This document shows positions 17,401 through 52,658 of a stretch of DNA of 64,000 nt, piece after piece. Location: contig NC_135815.1 of NCBI RefSeq assembly GCF_964213995.1, forward strand, positions 49,786,001 to 49,850,000. Reading direction: 5' to 3'. Source of the stretch: Mustelus asterias (taxonomy: Eukaryota). Numbering within the stretch: position 1 is the first letter of the stretch; each line of letters begins with the position of its first letter. A program made the translations under genes and the position numbers. Under the pieces are notes generated by a model, which saw nothing but the letters and a program-made list of their open reading frames with translations, was not told the DNA's origin and ran no database searches.

Positions 17401-18984
17401 ATCTCTCCTGTTGCTTTTTTTTAATCCCCAATGATTCCTCTCTTGCTATGCCCTGAAGAATGCATGATATTGTTAAATGTTGCTGTGTTCAGTGGTACTG
17501 GGACCCAGATCTGTTTTATTTTTCAGTATGTCTAGAGAAAGCGGTTTTCTGTAAAAGGAGTGATGTGGTTAAAGGCCTCAGGAGGGCAATCTTACTGGCT
17601 CGCCCTGCCAGTCGACTGGCGAGGCGAGCCACTAAGAGAGCGAGAGAGGGGAAAAATCAGCTTTGCACCCAGTTTCTCAGCCCTCACGATACGACCGGCA
17701 CAATGAAGCTGACGTGATTGGGCGTGAGGCTCAATATTTAAATTTGAATTTAAATATTATTAGTGAGCCCAGGACAGAGTTTGTGCCCAGTTGCTTTAAC
17801 GGCCTCGCCAGCGAAGGTCTTCACCGGTGAGGATCGGTATGGTTTCAGTTGTCGGTATGTCATGAGACTATAAAAAGTGTTAGAATACAATTCTTAGAGG
17901 ATGTAATGGCCTGATCATGCAAAGTTTAACTTTGAGAGAATTCATCTGATGTGTGCCTCAGAATATGAATGAAAAAACCATTGTAGGTGAAGGTTTGGAT
18001 GTGGAAGTACATCATCAAAAAGGAAACCTGTTAACTTAGAGGCACCCCTGCTCCTCCTGCCCCAGAAGCATTGCATAGGTAGTTACATGCTGGATCTGGC
18101 CTTTTTTGCATCTTTTCAGCTGCCAGAACATAGCTGCTAAATTTGAAAGTCTATAAAATTAGAAACATGGAACTTCATTAGCATATTGAAAGCAGGTTAG
18201 TCACCAGTACCCGTATCCACTTCTGTTTAAAGCAGAAGTGGGCATGTTTGAAGTTGGGTGGAGTCGGATTATGATTTTAAAAAATTTAACTCCCTCTACT
18301 CCCCACCTCATCAATCATGTGGAGTTAAAATTCCCATCTAATTAGATGATGTCACTGAGAGCCAGGACATAGGGGGAAAAAAAGAGATGGCCAAGGGAAC
18401 TTCAGAGGTAATGGTAAGGTCATAGAAGAGAAGTTTAGGAGGAGGATGCATGGTCAACCATGTCAAAATCTGGAGATTTGTCAAGAAGGTGAGGTGGGCA
18501 AGTGCACCATGGCCATAATCATAGATAATATAACATGAACTGGTTAGGGCCATTTCAGTGCTGCAACACTGGCAGAAATCTAATGGAGAAGAAAACAAAA
18601 AGGTTAAGAATGATGAGTGGTTTCAAACATCTGTCCTTAAACGATTTTTGTGGAACATGGGGCAGAGAATGAATCAGTTGGAAAATGGACCCGGGAATTG
18701 CAATGCACAATTAGCCCATGTCCGTTTGTTGCAATGTAGGCCAAATGCAAACTTTGTGTTGCCTGCAGCTTAAATCATGGTGGTGTTCAATCCAGTGCTA
18801 GTCTGAGTGATTGAATGCCTCAGCAGGGAACCCAAGCTCATGTAAGATTAATACCACTCTTGCACGAATTAAAGCCAGTGCCTTCCTTAAAGGTGAGGTA
18901 CATTCTAGATTCAACAGGTGCTGGAAATAGTTACAGAAGGATCACTGAACAAGAAGAAGATTGGAACTGTGAAGCAAGGCAAAG

Positions 18985-21270: not shown

Positions 21271-21403
21271 CACTCCTACATATCTCTGTTAGTTGATGTT
21301 GTCATGTGTGTTCTGTCCAAAGATAGACTCTTAGCTTATTATCTGCTGTTTTCTTGGCAATTTTTTGCTAGTGGTGGTTTGCCATTGCCTTTCACTCTCA
21401 GGA

Positions 21404-21617
21404 TGTGGAGATGCCAGCGTTGGACTGGGGTAAACACAGTAAGAGGTTTAACAACACCAGGTTAAAGTCCAACAGGTTTATTTGGTAGCAAAAGCCACAA
21501 GCTTTCGGAGCCTTAAGCCCCTTCTTCAGGTGAGCTTAAGGCTCCGAAAGCTTGTGGCTTTTGCTACCAAATAAACCTGTTGGACTTTAACCTGGTGTTG
21601 TTAAACTTCTTACTGTG
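21404..21617. mobile_element. Penelope-derived fold-back mini-element with 14-bp TSD, inserted in a tRNA-derived SINE
   Basis: 87-bp inverted arms 21432-21518 and 21534-21620 (1 mismatch); TSD TTTCACTCYCAGGA at 21390-21403 and 21618-21631; arms match the end of the Penelope element at 40466. Confidence 0.88.
21496..21532 (-). ncRNA. Minimal type I hammerhead ribozyme motif
   Basis: Minus strand CAC-CUGAAGA-A-GGGGC UUAAG GCUCC-GAAA-GC-UU-GUG; AAGCUU palindrome at stem III. Confidence 0.75.
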
Positions 21618-23275
21618 TTTCACTCCCAGGACAGGGCAATGAAGCAAATGCCTTGTCTACCTCAGCCAGAATGAGAATCAAATGCATGCTATTACTGTTA
21701 TTCTGACCAACTGCTAGCCATCTAGCTAACTGAGCTAACCAGACCCCAAGTGTTAGTTGCCTCAAAAAATTAATCTAGGTTAATTAGACATGAATTATCT
21801 TTTACAAGTCCAGGCTTACTCACTCTTATTGGTTCATACTTATCCAGGTGCACACTCAATTTTCCAAATTATAGATTCTAGTAGCTTTCCCACAATAGAC
21901 ATTAGACTAATAGGATTATGATTTCCTTGATTATCTCTCCGACTAAGAATGAAGTGGTAGTCTGTTTTAATGTAATATTTTCAACTGTCTTTCCATTTTG
22001 AAAATTAATTAAATTCTTATCAATTGCAATGATAAAATTAGAAAATTACAGTTCCAAAACTTCTTCAACTAAGATAATCTAGAATCAGTGGTTTCAATTT
22101 ATAATGATTAATAGATTGCAATTTAAAATAATTGCAATAATTTGAAAATATTAAGGGTGAAATTGCATCACTTTGTGCTCATTTTCTGATCCAATTTAGA
22201 CAACCAACCTCCCATGTCTGAACAGCATCAGATGTAAGTCCAATACTATATTGGATCAAATGCTGTAGAAGCGTTCCTGGCTGTTACCTAAAACAGACAG
22301 TAAACCACTCGAATATGGTAATAAGGGGTATTAAATCTCCTCTAAGATACAGACCGGGAATTGGTTCTCCCTCGGTGTAGCTGATATTGCATCTCGGGCA
22401 TACTGGCTCCAGATACAGTTTAAAAAATACGTCCCTTGGTGTGGAGCAAGAGGAGAAACATTTACTGCCCAGATCCACATTAAAACTTCGAGCTGCTACC
22501 AGCTACTACTTGCTCTTTCCAAGAAAAGGTAATAAGGACTTAATACTTTTAGTTGTGTCTCTGAGAACTGATCTTGCTTCCCTCCTCCTATCATCGCCAC
22601 CCTCAATCTCCCAGCAGTTGGTATGTTGTCATTGTCACAGCAAATGACACCTGCAGTTCACTGTTACTATTCTAATTAAGCTGATAGACTAATTTACCAT
22701 GGGAAAGTAACACGCCTGCCCAAAATAGCAGCCTTCTTACGATATGAAAGTTAGGATCCAAGACTGTGCGTAGGACCCCAAAATAAAATTATCCCAGCTC
22801 CACCTGCTACCCACCCCCCTCCCCTCCCTCAGCATTGCCACCCCCTCCTTTAAGGTCCCACTTCGCTTTGGTTATGTGGATGAGCCACTGGATTTCCTAT
22901 CCTGGATTAGCATGCTGCTCACCAACACATGTTCAATGCTAATACCTCACTGAAATTATTCTTGGGAGGTTCCAGCCATGAAAGTTGGTTGGGCCTTACA
23001 CCAATACCATTAGGCTGGTAGATCCTGGTTTTAAATAAAAGATAATTATAATTTTGCACAAATAGTTTTGTAGGATCAACAATATCGCCTTTGTACAGAC
23101 AATGGAAAGCTAATGTACCAAATTGGTAGTTTCCAATATATGCTAATCTATTTGAATATTGAAGCACTTCAATGACTGTAATTGTATAATGCTGAAATAA
23201 TGTTGGCCTAATCTTTTAAATAAATATTTTATTTTGTATTTTTGCATTGTATCTGTTCTGTTGAAATTATTCTGA

Positions 23276-39583: not shown

Positions 39584-39829
<246 letters not shown>

Positions 39830-40465
39830 TAAAGCTTATTATAATTAGCAAACTATTTATTTATTTGTTCTATTTTACATAGCCACTGACCTACATTCAC
39901 CGATTTATGACAGGAGTTAAGGAACAGATTGTAGATACTGCACTAAATGCATCAATGCTATGTTATGATGTCTCAGTAGAAGGCAAAATGATTAACAAAA
40001 TATTTTGTCTTTTATTTCCTTCAGTAGCAATAGAACAGAGACTTTGTTTGGCTTTTTCTTTCATCCCATTATAGTCTGTCTTTCCACCCAGTCAGTTTCT
40101 GATTTTGGTACTTTGTGCCCTCAAGTATGATTGGCACAGACTTGAATGTATCTTGACATTAACATCCTTGTTACATCTGGCTAGACCACATAAAACCCTA
40201 TAGGGCCTTGATGTCCACTGCCAAAACCACATACTTCAGGATTATCCTGGACTGTAAAAATAACTCCTTGTCTCTTTTTGTCACAAATACGATCTGCTTA
40301 AATTTCTCTCTTGTTCACGGCATTTTTATCTCCAAGAACAAGTACAACAAGCTTATGAGCTTCTTGTCACTGAGATTGATACCATCCATTCAGAAGCCTC
40401 TGCAGCACCCATCCTTTTCCCTTGCCCAACAAGTTAGTCATCCTCAATGGTTCTCCCCACTAAGT

Positions 40466-42820
40466 AAGAGTTTTAACAACACCAGGTTAAAATCCAACAG
40501 GTTTATTTGGTAGCAAATGCCATTAGCTTTCGGAGCGCTGCCCCTTCATCAGATGGAGTGGATATCTGCTCTCAAACAGGGCATACAGAGACACAAAATC
40601 AAGTGACAGAATACTGATTAGAATGCGAATCTCTACAGCCAACCAGGTCTTAAAGATACAGACAATGTGAGTGGAGGGAGCATTAAGCACAGGTTAAAGA
40701 GATGTGTATTGTCTCCAGACAGGACAGCCAGTGAGATTCTGCAAGTCCAGGAGGTAAGCTATGGGGGGTTACTGATAGTGCGACATAAACCCAAGATCCC
40801 GGTTTAGGCCGTCCTCATGTGTGCAGAACTTGGCTATCAGTTTCTGCTCAGCGACTCTGCGCTGTCGTGTGTCGTGAAGGCCGCCTTGGAGAATGCTTAC
40901 CCGAAGATCAGAGGCTGAATGCCCGTGACCGCTGAAGTGCTCCCCCACAGGAAGAGAACAGTCTTGCCTGGTGATTGTCGAGCGGTGTTCGTTCATCCGT
41001 TGTCGTAGCGTCTGCATGGTTTCCCCAATGTACCATGCCTTGGGACATCCTTTCCTGCAGCGTATCAGGTAGACAACGTTGGCCGAGTTGCAAGAGTAGG
41101 TACTGTGTACCTGGTAGATGGTGTTCTCACGTGAGATGATGGTATCCGTGTCGATGATCCGGCACGTCTTGCAGAGGTTGCTGTGCCAGGGTTGTGTGGT
41201 GTCATGGTCACTGTACTCCTGAAGGCTGGGTAGTTTGCTGCGGACAATGGTCTGTTTGAGGTTGTGCGGTTGTTTGAAGGCAAGAAGTGGGGGTGTGGGG
41301 ATGGCCTTGGCGAGATGTTCGTCTTCATCAATGACATGTTGAAGGCTCCGGAGGAGATGCTGTAGCTTCTCCGCTCTGGGGAAGTACTGGCCGATGAAGG
41401 GTACTCTGTCCACCGTGTCCCGTGTTTGTCTTCTGAGGAGGTCGGTGCGGTTTTTCGCTGTGGCGCGTCGGAACTGTCGATCGATGAGTCAAGCGCCATA
41501 TCCTGTTCTTATGAGAGCATCTTTCAGCATCTGGAGGTGTCTGTTGCGATCCTCCTCATCCGAGCAGATCCTGTGTATACGGAGGGCTTGTCCGTAAGGG
41601 ATGGCTTCTTTAATGTGTTTAGGGTGGAAGCTGGAGAAGCGGAGCATCGTGAGGTTATCCGTGGGCTTGCGGTACAGTGAGGTGCTGAAGTGATCGTCCT
41701 TAATGGAGATGCATGTGTCCAAGAATGCAACCGATTCCGGAGAGTAGTCCATGGTGAGTCTGATGGTGGGATGGAACTTGTTGATGTCATCATATAGTTG
41801 TTTCAGTGATTGTTCACCATGAGTCCAAAGGAAGAAAATGTCATCGATGTATCTAGTGTATAGCATCAGTTGAAGGTCCTGTGCGGTGAAGAAGTCTTGT
41901 TTGAACCTGTGCATGAAGGTGTTGGCATGTTGAGGTGCGAATTTGGTCCCCATGGCTGTTCCGTGTGTCTGGATGAAGAACTGGTTGTTGAAAGTGAAGA
42001 CATTGTGGTCCAGGATGAAGCGGATGAGTTGTAAAATTGCATCTAGAAACAGGCAGTTGTCGGCATTGAGTACTGAGGCCGTTGCAGCAATGCCATCATC
42101 GTGGGGGATGCTGGTGTAGAGTGCCGAGACGTCCATTGTGGCGAGGAGTGCTCCTGGTTCAACTGCTCCATGTGTGCTGAGTTTCTGTAGGAAGTCCGTA
42201 GTGTCGCGACAAAAGCTGGGGGTTCTTTGTACAATGGGTTTCAGGATGCTCTCGACATAGCCGGAGAGGGTCCCATTGCCCGATACGATGGGACGGCCGG
42301 GTGTGTTTGCCTTGTGTATCTTCGGAAGGCAGTAGAGATCTCCAACGTGGGATGAGAGCACGGAGGGTGCTCTGAAGGTCCGGATCAAAGGTCTTGATCA
42401 GAGTGTTGAGTTGATGGGTGTGTTCTTTGGTCGGATCTGTGGGTAACTGTCTGTAGTGTTCCTCGTTGTTCAGTTGTCGGTACACTTCTTTGCAGTAATC
42501 CGTTCTGTTCAGTATGACGATTGCTTCTCCTTTGTCTACTGGTTTGATGACAATGTTGCGGTTGGTCTTGAGAGCGTGGATGGCGTTGCGTCGTGCTTGG
42601 GTGATGTTCGGGGCTGTCTTGTGAGTGCAGCTGATGAATTTGATGTTGACGCACCTCCTGACGGCTTGGGCATACATGTCAAGTCGAGGGCAGCAGCCTT
42701 CCGGAGGAGTCCAATTCGACTCTTTCCTCTTCGGTTGCACTGCGGATCTCTCTGTCGGCTGTTCCGGTTCATTGGCTGTCTCATTGTGTTCGCTGTTGGC
42801 CTCTTGGGGTTTGTGGAAGA
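40466..42820 (-). mobile_element. Penelope-like retroelement (RT plus GIY-YIG endonuclease), 5'-truncated, 14-bp TSD
   Basis: RT motifs LPKIHK..PGRPIVS, GTAMGT, RYIDD (41489-42388); GIY-YIG NVVYLIRC..YIGET..RMNEH (40769-41413); TSD TCTCCCYACTAAGT at 40452-40465 and 42821-42834; a few stops and frameshifts. Confidence 0.95.
40520..40556 (-). ncRNA. Minimal hammerhead ribozyme motif in the Penelope 3' pLTR
   Basis: Minus strand CCAU-CUGAUGA-A-GGGGC AGC GCUCC-GAAA-GC-UA-AUGG. Confidence 0.8.
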
Positions 42821-49474: not shown

Positions 49475-50807
49475 CTTGAATTTTTAAATATTGACCAGTC
49501 CACTGATTCGAAGCAGCCCCATAGATCATCTGATTCCTCAGACCAACATTGCATGACTTTCTTTATCAGATTCTCCCATTTCAGTTTTTGCTTGTAAGCT
49601 GGCAACAAGAGCATAGCCTTGTGGTCTGATTTGCCAGGGTGTGGGCGGGCAATAGAGCGATAGGCATGTTTGGTGTTTGTGTAGCAGTGGTCTAGGATGT
49701 TTAGGCCTCTGGTGGAACAGGAGATGTGTTAATGGTTTCTTGGTAGGACATTCTTGAGTTTGGCCTGGTTGAAGTCCCCAGCCACACTGAACAAGGCCTC
49801 GGGAAGTTTCGTCTCAAGGCTACTAGTGGTATATGTATTATCCAGCGCCGTCTTCACCAACGCTTGGGGTGGGATGTAAACTGCTGTCAGGATAACAGAG
49901 GTGAACTCCCGCAGAAGGTAGTAGGGGCAGCATTTCAGTGTCAGGTATTCTAGGTCCGGTGGCGGGCAGAAACTCGCCAGTTTGCTATGTCTGGGCACCA
50001 AGAGGTGTTGACTAGAAGGCAGATCCCATTTCCCTATCTTTGTCGGAGGCCGCTGTACGGTCCAGTGGAATGAGAAGCCCTCCGGTTGTAGGGCACAGTC
50101 CAGTGAAACAGGAGTGAGCCATGTCTCCGTGAAGCAGAGCAGACATCAGTCTCTTGTTCCTTTTGAAAAAAGTGAGTCTGGCTTTAAGTTCATCTAGCTT
50201 GTTTTCCAGAGATTGGATATTTGCCAGGAGTAAGTTGGAGAGGGGGGTCTTGGGACCTATGTTGTTTCACTCTCACCTGCAGGCCTGCGTGTTTCCCACA
50301 CTTCCTGGAGTGGCTGCTTCTTTTCATGCCTGGGAGATGGTGAGAGTAGTATTCGGTATGAAGGGTATAAGTGTGTCCAGTGAGGTTCTTCGCTTTGGTC
50401 GGTGTGTGGGTAGAGGATTTGTTGCCATGGTCACGGTTCCTGCGTCGGCAGTTCGGTCTGCGCAGTCGGGTGTTTGGGTCGCCGTCAGGCTGTGGTTTGA
50501 TTTCGGAGGATGTTCATACCATGCTCCGGCATGGACAGGTCGAAGGTCAGCAAGTGGATGGGGTCTCTGGGGTTACGATAATGGATGAGCCAATGGCCAA
50601 GTCCACGTGATAGGGTCCTCTGGGTCACTGCTAGGTCGGGGGTCTTCCTTCAGAGGATCTCTAGACCTGCAAGTAAATTTAAAAGAGCGGTGTTAGTAAT
50701 CTTTAAGCAGTAGAAGCACAAGGTCGCAGCTCTCTGGGTCAGAGGAGTTGGAGGCCGGGGAGTGAAGGCCCCAGCTCCAGACTTGCTGCTCTGGCTGTTA
50801 GGATTGA

Positions 50808-51164
50808 CACAGTAAGAAGTCTCACAACACCAGGTTAAAGTCCAACAGGTTTATTTGGTAGCAAATACCATAAACTTTCGGAGCACAGCTCCTTCGTCAG
50901 ATGGAGTGGATATCTGTTCTCAAACAGTGCAAACAGACACAGAAATCAAATTACAGAATACTGATTAGAATGCAAATCTCTACAGCCAGCCAGGTCTTAA
51001 ATGTACAGACAATGTGGGTGGAGGTTAAAGAGATGTGTATTGTCTCCAGACAGAACAGCTAGTGAAATTCTGCAAGTCCAGGAGGCAAGCTGTGGGGGTT
51101 ACTGATAATGTGACATAAATCCAACATCCCGGTTTAGGCCGTCCTCATGTGTGCGGATCTTGGC
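50808..51164 (-). mobile_element. Penelope 3' fragment with 9-bp TSD
   Basis: Closely similar to 40466-40836; TAGGATTGA at 50799-50807 and 51165-51173. Confidence 0.9.
50868..50904 (-). ncRNA. Minimal hammerhead ribozyme motif
   Basis: Minus strand CCAU-CUGACGA-A-GGAGC UGU GCUCC-GAAA-GU-UU-AUGG. Confidence 0.7.
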
Positions 51165-52658
51165 TAGGATTGATGCAGGCCCATATTCATAGGCCCTTCA
51201 TCTAAGTCATTTATATAAATTGTAAAAGTTGAGACCTCAGCACTGATCCCTGTGCCAACCAGAAAAGGGCCCATTTATGTCAACTCTGTATCCTGTTAGC
51301 TAGCCAACTTCTATCCATGCCAATATATAACCCTCGACACCGTGAGCTTTTATTTTCTATAATAACCTGTGATGTGGCACCTTATGGAAATCTAACTACA
51401 GTACATCCACCAGTTCCCCTTTATTCACAGCATGTGATTGTTCAAACAACTCTAATAAATTGGTTAGATATGATTCACAAAATCATGTTGACTCTGCCTG
51501 ATTGCTTTGAAGTTTTCTAAGTGGCCTGCTATAACATCTTTAAGAATGGCTCCTAACATTTTCCCTATGATAGATGTTAGGCTAACTGACCTCTTGTTTC
51601 CTGCTTTCTGTCTCCCTCCCTTTCTGAGAAGAGTTACATTTACTATCTTCCAATTTAATGGAATCTTCCCGAATCTAGGGAATTTTGGAAAATTAAGACC
51701 AATGCATCAACTCTCTCATTAGCCACTTCTTTCAAGATCTTAAGGTGAAGTCCATCCGGACCCAGGTATGTATCAGCCCACAGCCCCAACAAGTTGCTCA
51801 TACAACTTCGCTGGAGATTGTAATTTTCCAGAGTTCCTCCCTCCCTTCCATTTCCTTATTTACAGCTATTTCTGGCATGCTACTTGTGTCCTCCATGGTG
51901 AAGACTGATGCAAAATACCTGTTTAATTAATCCGCCATCCCTCCTTACTTTCCTTATCAATTCAAATTTGATAGTCAACTTTTTTTTAAGTTAACCACGG
52001 ATGGTGGGCCCTCACCTTGAAATTTTTATTTTCTCATTCGAATGTGTATATTTTCTGTATTCTGAAATATCTCTTTAAATGTTTGCCATTGAACCTCTCT
52101 AGACCTACCCTTTAACCACATTTGCCAGTTCACTTTGTATTTGCTAGCTCCACTTTCATACCTTCATAATTGTCCTTAAATTTAAAATACAAACCTTGGA
52201 CGCACTCTTCGCTCCCACAATTTGAATGTAAAATTCAATCATATTGTGATCTCTGTTCCCTAGAGGCACCTTCACAATGAGGTTATCAATTAATCCTATT
52301 TCATTATACAAGGAACAGCGTGCCCAATTTGGATAGTATGGCTTCTGTAGTACCGTCTCCAGCAGTGCCACAATTCCAAATTTTGTGTCCCAGTTCTTGA
52401 TTTTCTGTTTGCAATACCCAAAGAGATTGACTATTAATGATTTCAGACAAAACAACAATTAAAGAGCTGATGAAATATAATTTTTCATTGATAGACAACA
52501 AGACAAATTTGTGGCAAACCACGATATTTTCCTCCCAATGAACGATAAAGATTTATTATTGCCTTTGTAAATAAATGGAAGAATTTATTTTTGTTTTCAC
52601 CTTAAGTTTTATGACCAGTCTCTTCTTGACAATTTGTTCTTATACTACTCATTTATAG

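Follow-up and report, generated by a model that had tools for sequence, protein, structure and literature searches.

A short intronic hairpin with a hammerhead motif as a probable head-to-head stub of a Penelope-like element

Introduction

How does a non-coding hairpin that carries a hammerhead ribozyme motif come to lie in an intron of Mustelus asterias, and does it belong to a mobile family or record a single event? The hairpin was noticed in a 64,000-nucleotide stretch of genomic DNA, referred to here as the window. An original prediction, made from the letters of the window, offered two readings: an extreme truncation-inversion product of a Penelope-like element (PLE), or a member of a non-autonomous, ribozyme-bearing family resembling retrozymes.

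Insertions of the rotifer Pen2a_Av type likewise have a head-to-head inverted 5'-truncated copy, a hammerhead in the pseudo-LTR, a target-site duplication and a 30-40-bp tail on one end only (PMC3846280; PMC8557442), and the head-to-head tailed layout is therefore already published. How the inverted structures and tails of Penelope arise has been called undefined (PMC8557442), and for a single element studied in vitro, PAc (Poseidon of Anolis carolinensis), the later insertion steps were left unvalidated (PMC11167929).

Architecture of the insertion

The features of the locus are collected in Table 1. Alignment of the arms (21432-21518 and 21534-21620, 87 nt each) and folding of the sequence both reproduced the hairpin as it had been described, with 86/87 positions paired, a lone mismatch at 21445 and a 15-nt spacer. 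The fold energy of the hairpin is -181.6 kcal/mol (z = -22.7 against 200 shuffles), and the two strands are predicted to fold similarly (about -180 kcal/mol, z about -23). The long and short arms join at about 21533/21534, with microhomology of 1-3 nt. The mismatch at 21445 was considered as a sign of two templates and rejected, since the C allele occurs in 1/93 long arms and T is the norm.

Table 1. Features of the hairpin locus and its host gene (positions in the window)
Feature	Position	Strand	Remark
CAA variant of the target motif	21385..21387	-	2 nt outside the left duplication
Left target-site duplication copy	21390..21401	+	12 bp by the family motif; to 21403 (14 bp) if a 2-nt tail overlap is included
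Single-copy tail of the Penelope-like element	21402..21431	-	Lies between two inferred reverse transcription (RT) start sites
Long (tailed) arm, 3' part of the pseudo-LTR	21432..21518	-	Element sense on minus
Minimal type-I hammerhead motif	21496..21532	-	Predicted cut between 21499 and 21498
Spacer/loop, by which the long arm extends further 5'	21519..21533	-	Contains CUGAAGA
Short (untailed) arm, inverted pseudo-LTR copy	21534..21617	+	Element sense on plus
TTT	21618..21620		Belongs to both the short arm and the duplication
Right target-site duplication copy	21618..21629	+	Single T/C change relative to the left copy
CAG target motif	21632..21634	+	2 nt outside the right duplication
Open frame with the nearest identified downstream exon of the EML5/6-type gene	39584..39829	+	Fixes the host strand

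An insertion of 214 bp flanked by a 14-bp duplication had been proposed. Both the insertion and its duplication are real, but the copies of the direct repeat (21390-21403 and 21618-21631) match at 13/14 positions and are thus not identical. Judged by the target motif of the family (described below), the real extent of the duplication is probably 12 bp (21390-21401 and 21618-21629) and that of the insert 216 bp; given CAG on the right and CAA on the left, a 12-bp duplication fits at this locus. Reads of the family likewise lose their match at 21402. The stretch 21402/21404-21431 is not filler; family copies show it to be the single-copy tail of the element.

On the pre-mRNA strand, the loop at 21526-21534 (+) reads CAG/GTGAGC, a near-consensus 5' splice site; the antisense strand of the family usually reads CAG/GTGAGT. 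The site could serve as a cryptic donor in host introns. Elsewhere in the window, a 48-bp GC-rich imperfect palindrome (17590-17637, 87.5%) is unrelated to the Penelope family. At 21655-21750, contigs of all four runs accumulate with loose ends, which suggests an old dispersed repeat fragment to the right of the insertion.

The host gene and the empty site

Exons for an EML propeller lie on the plus strand at both sides of the insertion, with a convergent reticulon gene beyond them. Both paralogous EML loci have a reticulon neighbour, but the two genes are convergent only at this one, an arrangement that matches that of human EML6-RTN4. The original prediction had named EML6 as the host. An EML5/6-type gene on the plus strand is borne out, and EML6 in particular is plausible by this synteny. 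With the host gene on the plus strand, the pre-mRNA carries the antisense of the complete hammerhead.

A contig of 1,289 nt from organism B (run X3, depth 5.84) connects the two flanks through one copy of the duplication, without the element. Record positions 284-787 hold the left flank, up to 21403, and positions 30-294 the right flank from 21621 onwards; the flanks differ from the window at 9/504 and 13/265 letters, and this relative is about 2-3% diverged. In contigs of runs X12 and X13 the match starts at 21618 and continues for hundreds of letters without the end of the element, consistent with empty sites. The empty-site evidence comes from these three runs, X7 having no left-flank cover and X21 too little. 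In a contig of run X1 (organism A, possibly the source sample) the right junction is the same, with 0 differences. The long duplex on which ADAR or Drosha/Dicer might act, as originally proposed, is predicted, but the insertion is young and its site is empty in a close relative.

The parent element

The long arm and 21402-21431 match a very abundant repeat at 96-100% identity, a range taken from 40 scored out of 1,380 candidates, and a 17-mer from the arm has 6,052 exact matches in the 3.68-Gb genome. In longer copies the end of an ORF precedes the pseudo-LTR/tail sequence and the start of an ORF comes after it; in L005 the order is pseudo-LTR, tail, then an ATG with a long reading frame. An ORF piece from L012 matches RVT_1 (E 4e-8), and an overlapping piece from L082 matches GIY-YIG (E 9.5e-4, below the Pfam curated cut-off). 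No full-length single ORF of the parent element was recovered, and the coding evidence comes from these overlapping pieces. The Penelope-like origin that had been suggested is thereby upheld: the arms are 3' pseudo-LTR pieces of an abundant element with RT and GIY-YIG domains.

In the L082 peptide, a Cys cluster precedes the VVY...YIG motif, in the linker between the RT and endonuclease (EN) domains. A Zn-finger-like Cys motif in this linker marks the Neptune and Nematis clades (PMC8557442). A Poseidon-clade label was rejected once the Cys-rich linker was found, and by this feature, which Nematis has too, the parent would be a Neptune-type EN+ PLE.

Between 14 and 36 nt upstream of the anchor, 5' ends are in broad excess (29 in a span of 23 nt versus 34 in 164 nt), and a TATA-like box sits 29 nt before an initiator-like CCACTC in the element. 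A sharp transcription-start pile-up was rejected, as the excess is broad; we hypothesize that it may nonetheless mark the transcription start of the element.

Sister fold-backs, tails and target sites

Tight fold-backs are common in the genome. With one anchor pair, 47 + 133 = 180 were found versus 0.15 expected, and with the inner anchor pair there are at least 1,465. A set of 99 hairpins was assembled from the complete list of 47, a further 50 taken from the 133, and 4 same-junction loci, after removal of a duplicate (L096) and a locus that failed the pattern (L033). At a tail-call threshold of 20 of 26, one arm is tailed and the other untailed in 93/99, none is doubly tailed and 6 are without a tail. 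The same is true of 38/40 in a second set, the first 40 of the 1,465 inner-pair fold-backs, where none is doubly tailed and 2 have no tail. A third sample was drawn from chromosome 1 as 88 position-ordered 17-mer loci, from which 4 segmental duplicates were removed; an inverted partner lay within reach in 50/84, and 44/50 of these pairs are tailed/untailed; of the other six, 1 has two tails, 1 has none and 4 have a damaged end. An inverted 5'-truncated copy with a one-sided tail and a duplication is present at the locus and in 93/99 sister hairpins. Truncation and inversion were correctly predicted, but the product is neither extreme nor rare; it is the routine insertion form of this family.

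The target sites are symmetric. The duplication is at least 8 bp in 87/93 hairpins and 12-14 bp in 69/87. At the 32 sites with a duplication of exactly 12 bp, CA is found at +3/+4, 2 nt outside the duplication, in 50/64 ends (background 0.074), and CAG in 34/64 (background 0.019). A second sample, which has one locus in common with the first, replicates the motif (CA in 27/34 and CAG in 11/34 ends). The target is therefore mirror-symmetric, with CA/CAG 2 nt outside both duplications, and the spacing between CTG and CAG peaks at 16-17 nt (38/86 sites, one element-versus-element match left out). Element ends gather at two sites that lie about 35 nt from each other. A crude motif test gives a second end of another kind in 18/53 chromosome-1 insertions with a resolved duplication, which means that inversion is not obligatory. 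Four independent insertions (L031, L122, L178 and L183) share the same 12-bp spot of another repeat, with the same duplication sequence and similar flanks; this fits sequence-directed target choice. Family copies on chromosome 1 with identical ends (L208-L210, L178-L179 and L201-L202) are spaced about 16-33 kb apart and are probably local segmental or tandem duplications.

The hammerhead motif

Read from 21532 to 21496, the minus strand is CAC-CUGAAGA-A-GGGGC-UUAAG-GCUCC-GAAA-GC-UU-GUG, the full layout of a minimal hammerhead. The CUGANGA/GAAA core, stem II, the palindromic 15.2-16.2 element and NUH, which define the minimal type-I motif, are all present. Position 17 is U here, as in 203/228 family hammerhead copies tabulated. 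The plus arm lacks CUGANGA and holds just the GAAAGCUU half; on both strands the sequence agrees with what had been predicted. An Rfam scan of the locus gave no hammerhead family match and returned just miRNA hairpin models under the gathering cut-offs, which were set aside as generic hairpin matches. The window also holds two older untailed copies of the same family with intact hammerheads, at 40463-40900 (-) and 50807-51170 (-). Their stem I is CAU/AUG rather than CAC/GUG, a compensatory pair, and CCAG lies about 14 nt beyond the end of the second copy.

Predicted probabilities of the hammerhead helices are 0.82-0.99 in isolation versus 0.0 within the whole fold-back. In any transcript of the locus, the hammerhead is predicted to be locked in the 87-bp duplex and unable to fold; it is a passenger of the insertion. 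Since both arms cross the predicted cut site, the template RNA of this insertion was uncut. In a sister subtype, 13/31 arm ends between -2 and +4 sit exactly at the predicted cut (p about 2e-4; one more end was excluded as a point-mutation artefact). This pile-up of cDNA ends hints at a trace of cleavage by parental hammerheads, while a GT repeat at the cut site could likewise favour that joint. The subtype of the locus has no cut-site peak, with 5 arms at the site, 5 at +1 and 5 at +2. In earlier work, no Anolis reads were reported to end at the hammerhead cut site (PMC11167929), and the in vitro activity of minimal PLE hammerheads was low (PMC4209133). If the hint is correct, the pile-up in the sister subfamily would be genomic evidence for in vivo cleavage by minimal PLE hammerheads.

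Origin of the inverted arms

The mechanism that we favour uses two nicks and one RNA. An element dimer would nick each strand 2 nt 5' of CA(G), with the nicks 12 nt apart and two 3' overhangs, a geometry that yields a 12-bp duplication and a mirror-symmetric CTG-N16-CAG target. The tailed arm would come from one 3' end that primes at the outer RT start site, and the untailed arm from the second 3' end, which would use an inner site of the same RNA, about 35 nt further 5'. Both cDNAs would halt early, at this locus near the 5' side of the hammerhead, which is maybe the 5' end of the transcript. The cDNA ends would then be joined via 0-6 nt of microhomology or filler and the gaps filled. Taken together, the clustering of ends, the symmetric target, the asymmetry of the arms and the sharing of alleles favour a pair of nicks together with a pair of start sites on a single RNA. 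We regard as probable the account as a whole, that of a non-coding head-to-head PLE stub made in one event with both cut strands priming RT on one RNA. The one-RNA, two-nick mechanism, all of whose steps are read from genomic end-points, is fairly likely. We lean only slightly towards the wider proposition that such stubs record Penelope insertion itself, with a dimer nicking CTG-N16-CAG to leave 12-nt 3' overhangs whose ends prime two fixed sites on one RNA. Two in vitro findings for PAc speak against the model: the RT start site was the same for both strands, and the preferred nick was ATT, not CAG, in this case for a different clade and one target (PMC11167929).

An assembly fold-back artefact is scarcely credible. 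While the central junction is spanned by no listed read-derived contig, the artefact does not account for the duplication, the family target motif at both ends, the asymmetric tail and the one arm mismatch; the right junction is present in X1, the site is empty in X3, and raw DNA reads of a relative show recurrent strand-switch joints within the repeat family. The retrozyme-like reading, in which a non-autonomous ribozyme-bearing hairpin family was mobilized, draws on recurrent centres. A genome search for the identical caggtga/gcttaag junction, which had been proposed as a test, found 4 loci, this one included, and a hot centre, GTGAGTCAC, occurs in 17/107 loci listed (hand count). Yet the other 3 same-centre loci are mirror images, with the tail on the arm without CUGAAGA and the other stem-II allele on the full-hammerhead arm, and they therefore formed separately from this locus, probably via the shared 1-3-nt microhomology. 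The GTGAGTCAC centre occurs in two subfamilies, with A/A, G/G and mixed stem-II alleles, and both orientations are represented (5:1). It coincides with the 5' edge of stem I in the hammerhead and is 29 nt below the TATA-like box (e.g., L094, L106, L111, L122, L128, L142 and L143), and both cDNAs at these loci seem to stop at the same base, perhaps the 5' end of the transcript. With distinct centres in 94/99 hairpins, no tandem array, and a hammerhead predicted unable to fold in the hairpin, the mobile family put forward in the original prediction is largely refuted and very improbable. The insert is almost certainly a dead PLE copy, a doubly 5'-truncated head-to-head terminal-repeat stub that formed independently.

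The remaining alternatives differ in how the second arm was made. In one, a single target-primed RT was followed by fold-back self-priming, and the endonuclease trimmed the second arm at the tail boundary; the self-priming idea is close to that in PMC3846280. It would suit the common palindromic or microhomologous centres (GAATTC, CTTAAG, AAGCTT), the almost constant agreement of the arms in subfamily and allele, and this locus, where the tailed arm contains the entire untailed arm plus the loop. It is nevertheless unlikely. In the chromosome-1 sample, the untailed arm extends further 5' in 26 of 44 pairs, sometimes by >200 nt, and the tailed arm does so in 9, the remaining 9 being tied or out of range; the reference copy aligned up to 244 nt upstream, longer arms being unranked, and BLAST may miss very small untailed arms, which would bias the 26:9 count. 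Among 59 tight subfamily-A hairpins, the untailed arm is longer in 14, the tailed in 15, and 30 are within 3 nt; the 14 are not older by arm divergence. Post-insertion deletions at hairpin centres could produce part of this asymmetry. In pairs whose untailed arm is longer 5' while only the tailed arm has the tail, neither arm can have been copied from the other; each then holds sequence absent from the other, which a single fold-back cannot yield. Self-priming also fits poorly with an identical target motif at both ends and with the many centres whose loop is too short to fold or that contain filler. Two separate RNAs, one per subunit and each primed at one nick, are quite unlikely. This reading is suggested by L032 and L092, which combine subfamily features, and by hairpins whose arms differ in the stem-II A/G allele, as they do in 11/165. 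These mixed hairpins exceed the 2-3% mutation background (p 0.0005-0.012), and the arms of some hairpins may come from two RNAs. However, the allele is common to both arms in 154/165, where random pairing would give 71 mixed loci, and free choice of site predicts 25% doubly tailed insertions against 0/99, 0/40 and 1/50 seen. Two RNAs would thus require that the dimer be asymmetric and that both RNAs stem from one source locus; in that form, they fit the data equally well as the one-RNA, two-nick mechanism. A directional allele bias (tailed G, untailed A), seen at first in 6/7 mixed loci, was not reproduced (6:4 of 11, with 1 unclassified). In L142 and L151 the arms are identical over 70 nt with a shared minor variant, yet differ at the stem-II A/G position.

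Relation to known elements

Compared with the rotifer insertions (PMC3846280; PMC8557442), both copies here are ORF-less and form a near-pure hairpin, the duplication is 12-14 bp rather than 8-10 bp, and the target motif is symmetric, which is not described for those insertions in the parts of the two papers drawn on here. PAc nicks and extends both strands in vitro, its RT starts at two sites bounding the tail, a dimer is predicted, and its minimal hammerhead is protein-assisted, with cleavage unnecessary for insertion (PMC11167929). The two end clusters about 35 nt apart resemble the two RT start sites of PAc. The family differs from PAc in its Cys-rich, Neptune-type RT-EN linker, its CA(G) rather than ATT nick context, and a hammerhead about 100 nt before the ORF start, which in PAc lies over it (PMC11167929). 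The sections of that study considered here draw no link between the two start sites and inverted arms.

Metazoan PLE hammerheads share with this one the CUGANGA core, an extra base before stem II, a short stem I and a palindromic 15.2-16.2 element without helix III, and opposite-strand hammerhead pairs 100-700 bp apart have already been noted (PMC4209133). Unlike those motifs, the hammerhead here lies inside its own 87-bp antisense duplex and has U at position 17. Non-LTR retrozymes are likewise non-coding, hammerhead-bearing and derived from PLE pseudo-LTRs, but they are tandem head-to-tail monomers reported to be depleted from introns (10.64898/2026.07.22.740005). The locus is instead a single inverted unit, intronic and not amplified, and lacks the tandem monomers and the amplification of retrozymes.

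A related process is L1 twin priming, where internal priming on the same RNA by the second target 3' end leaves a 5' inversion and a duplication. L1 inversions are not known to overlap, and their second priming site is variable. The family studied here has a fixed second site, about 35 nt away from the first, and arms that overlap nearly fully. The symmetric target motif and the two-nick, two-site model were not found in the literature searched, where the supplements of PMC11167929 may hold target-site data and the parts of PMC12910113 considered contain nothing on Penelope target choice.

Implications

If the two-nick, two-site model is true, a single step would account for the duplication, the tail at one end only and the inverted arm. 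The locus itself is minor, a young non-coding stub among thousands. The family is a test bed, as thousands of young hairpins give the target motif, the stagger and the pair of start sites for an in vitro assay, and it implies that introns in these genomes carry a large load of near-perfect duplexes.
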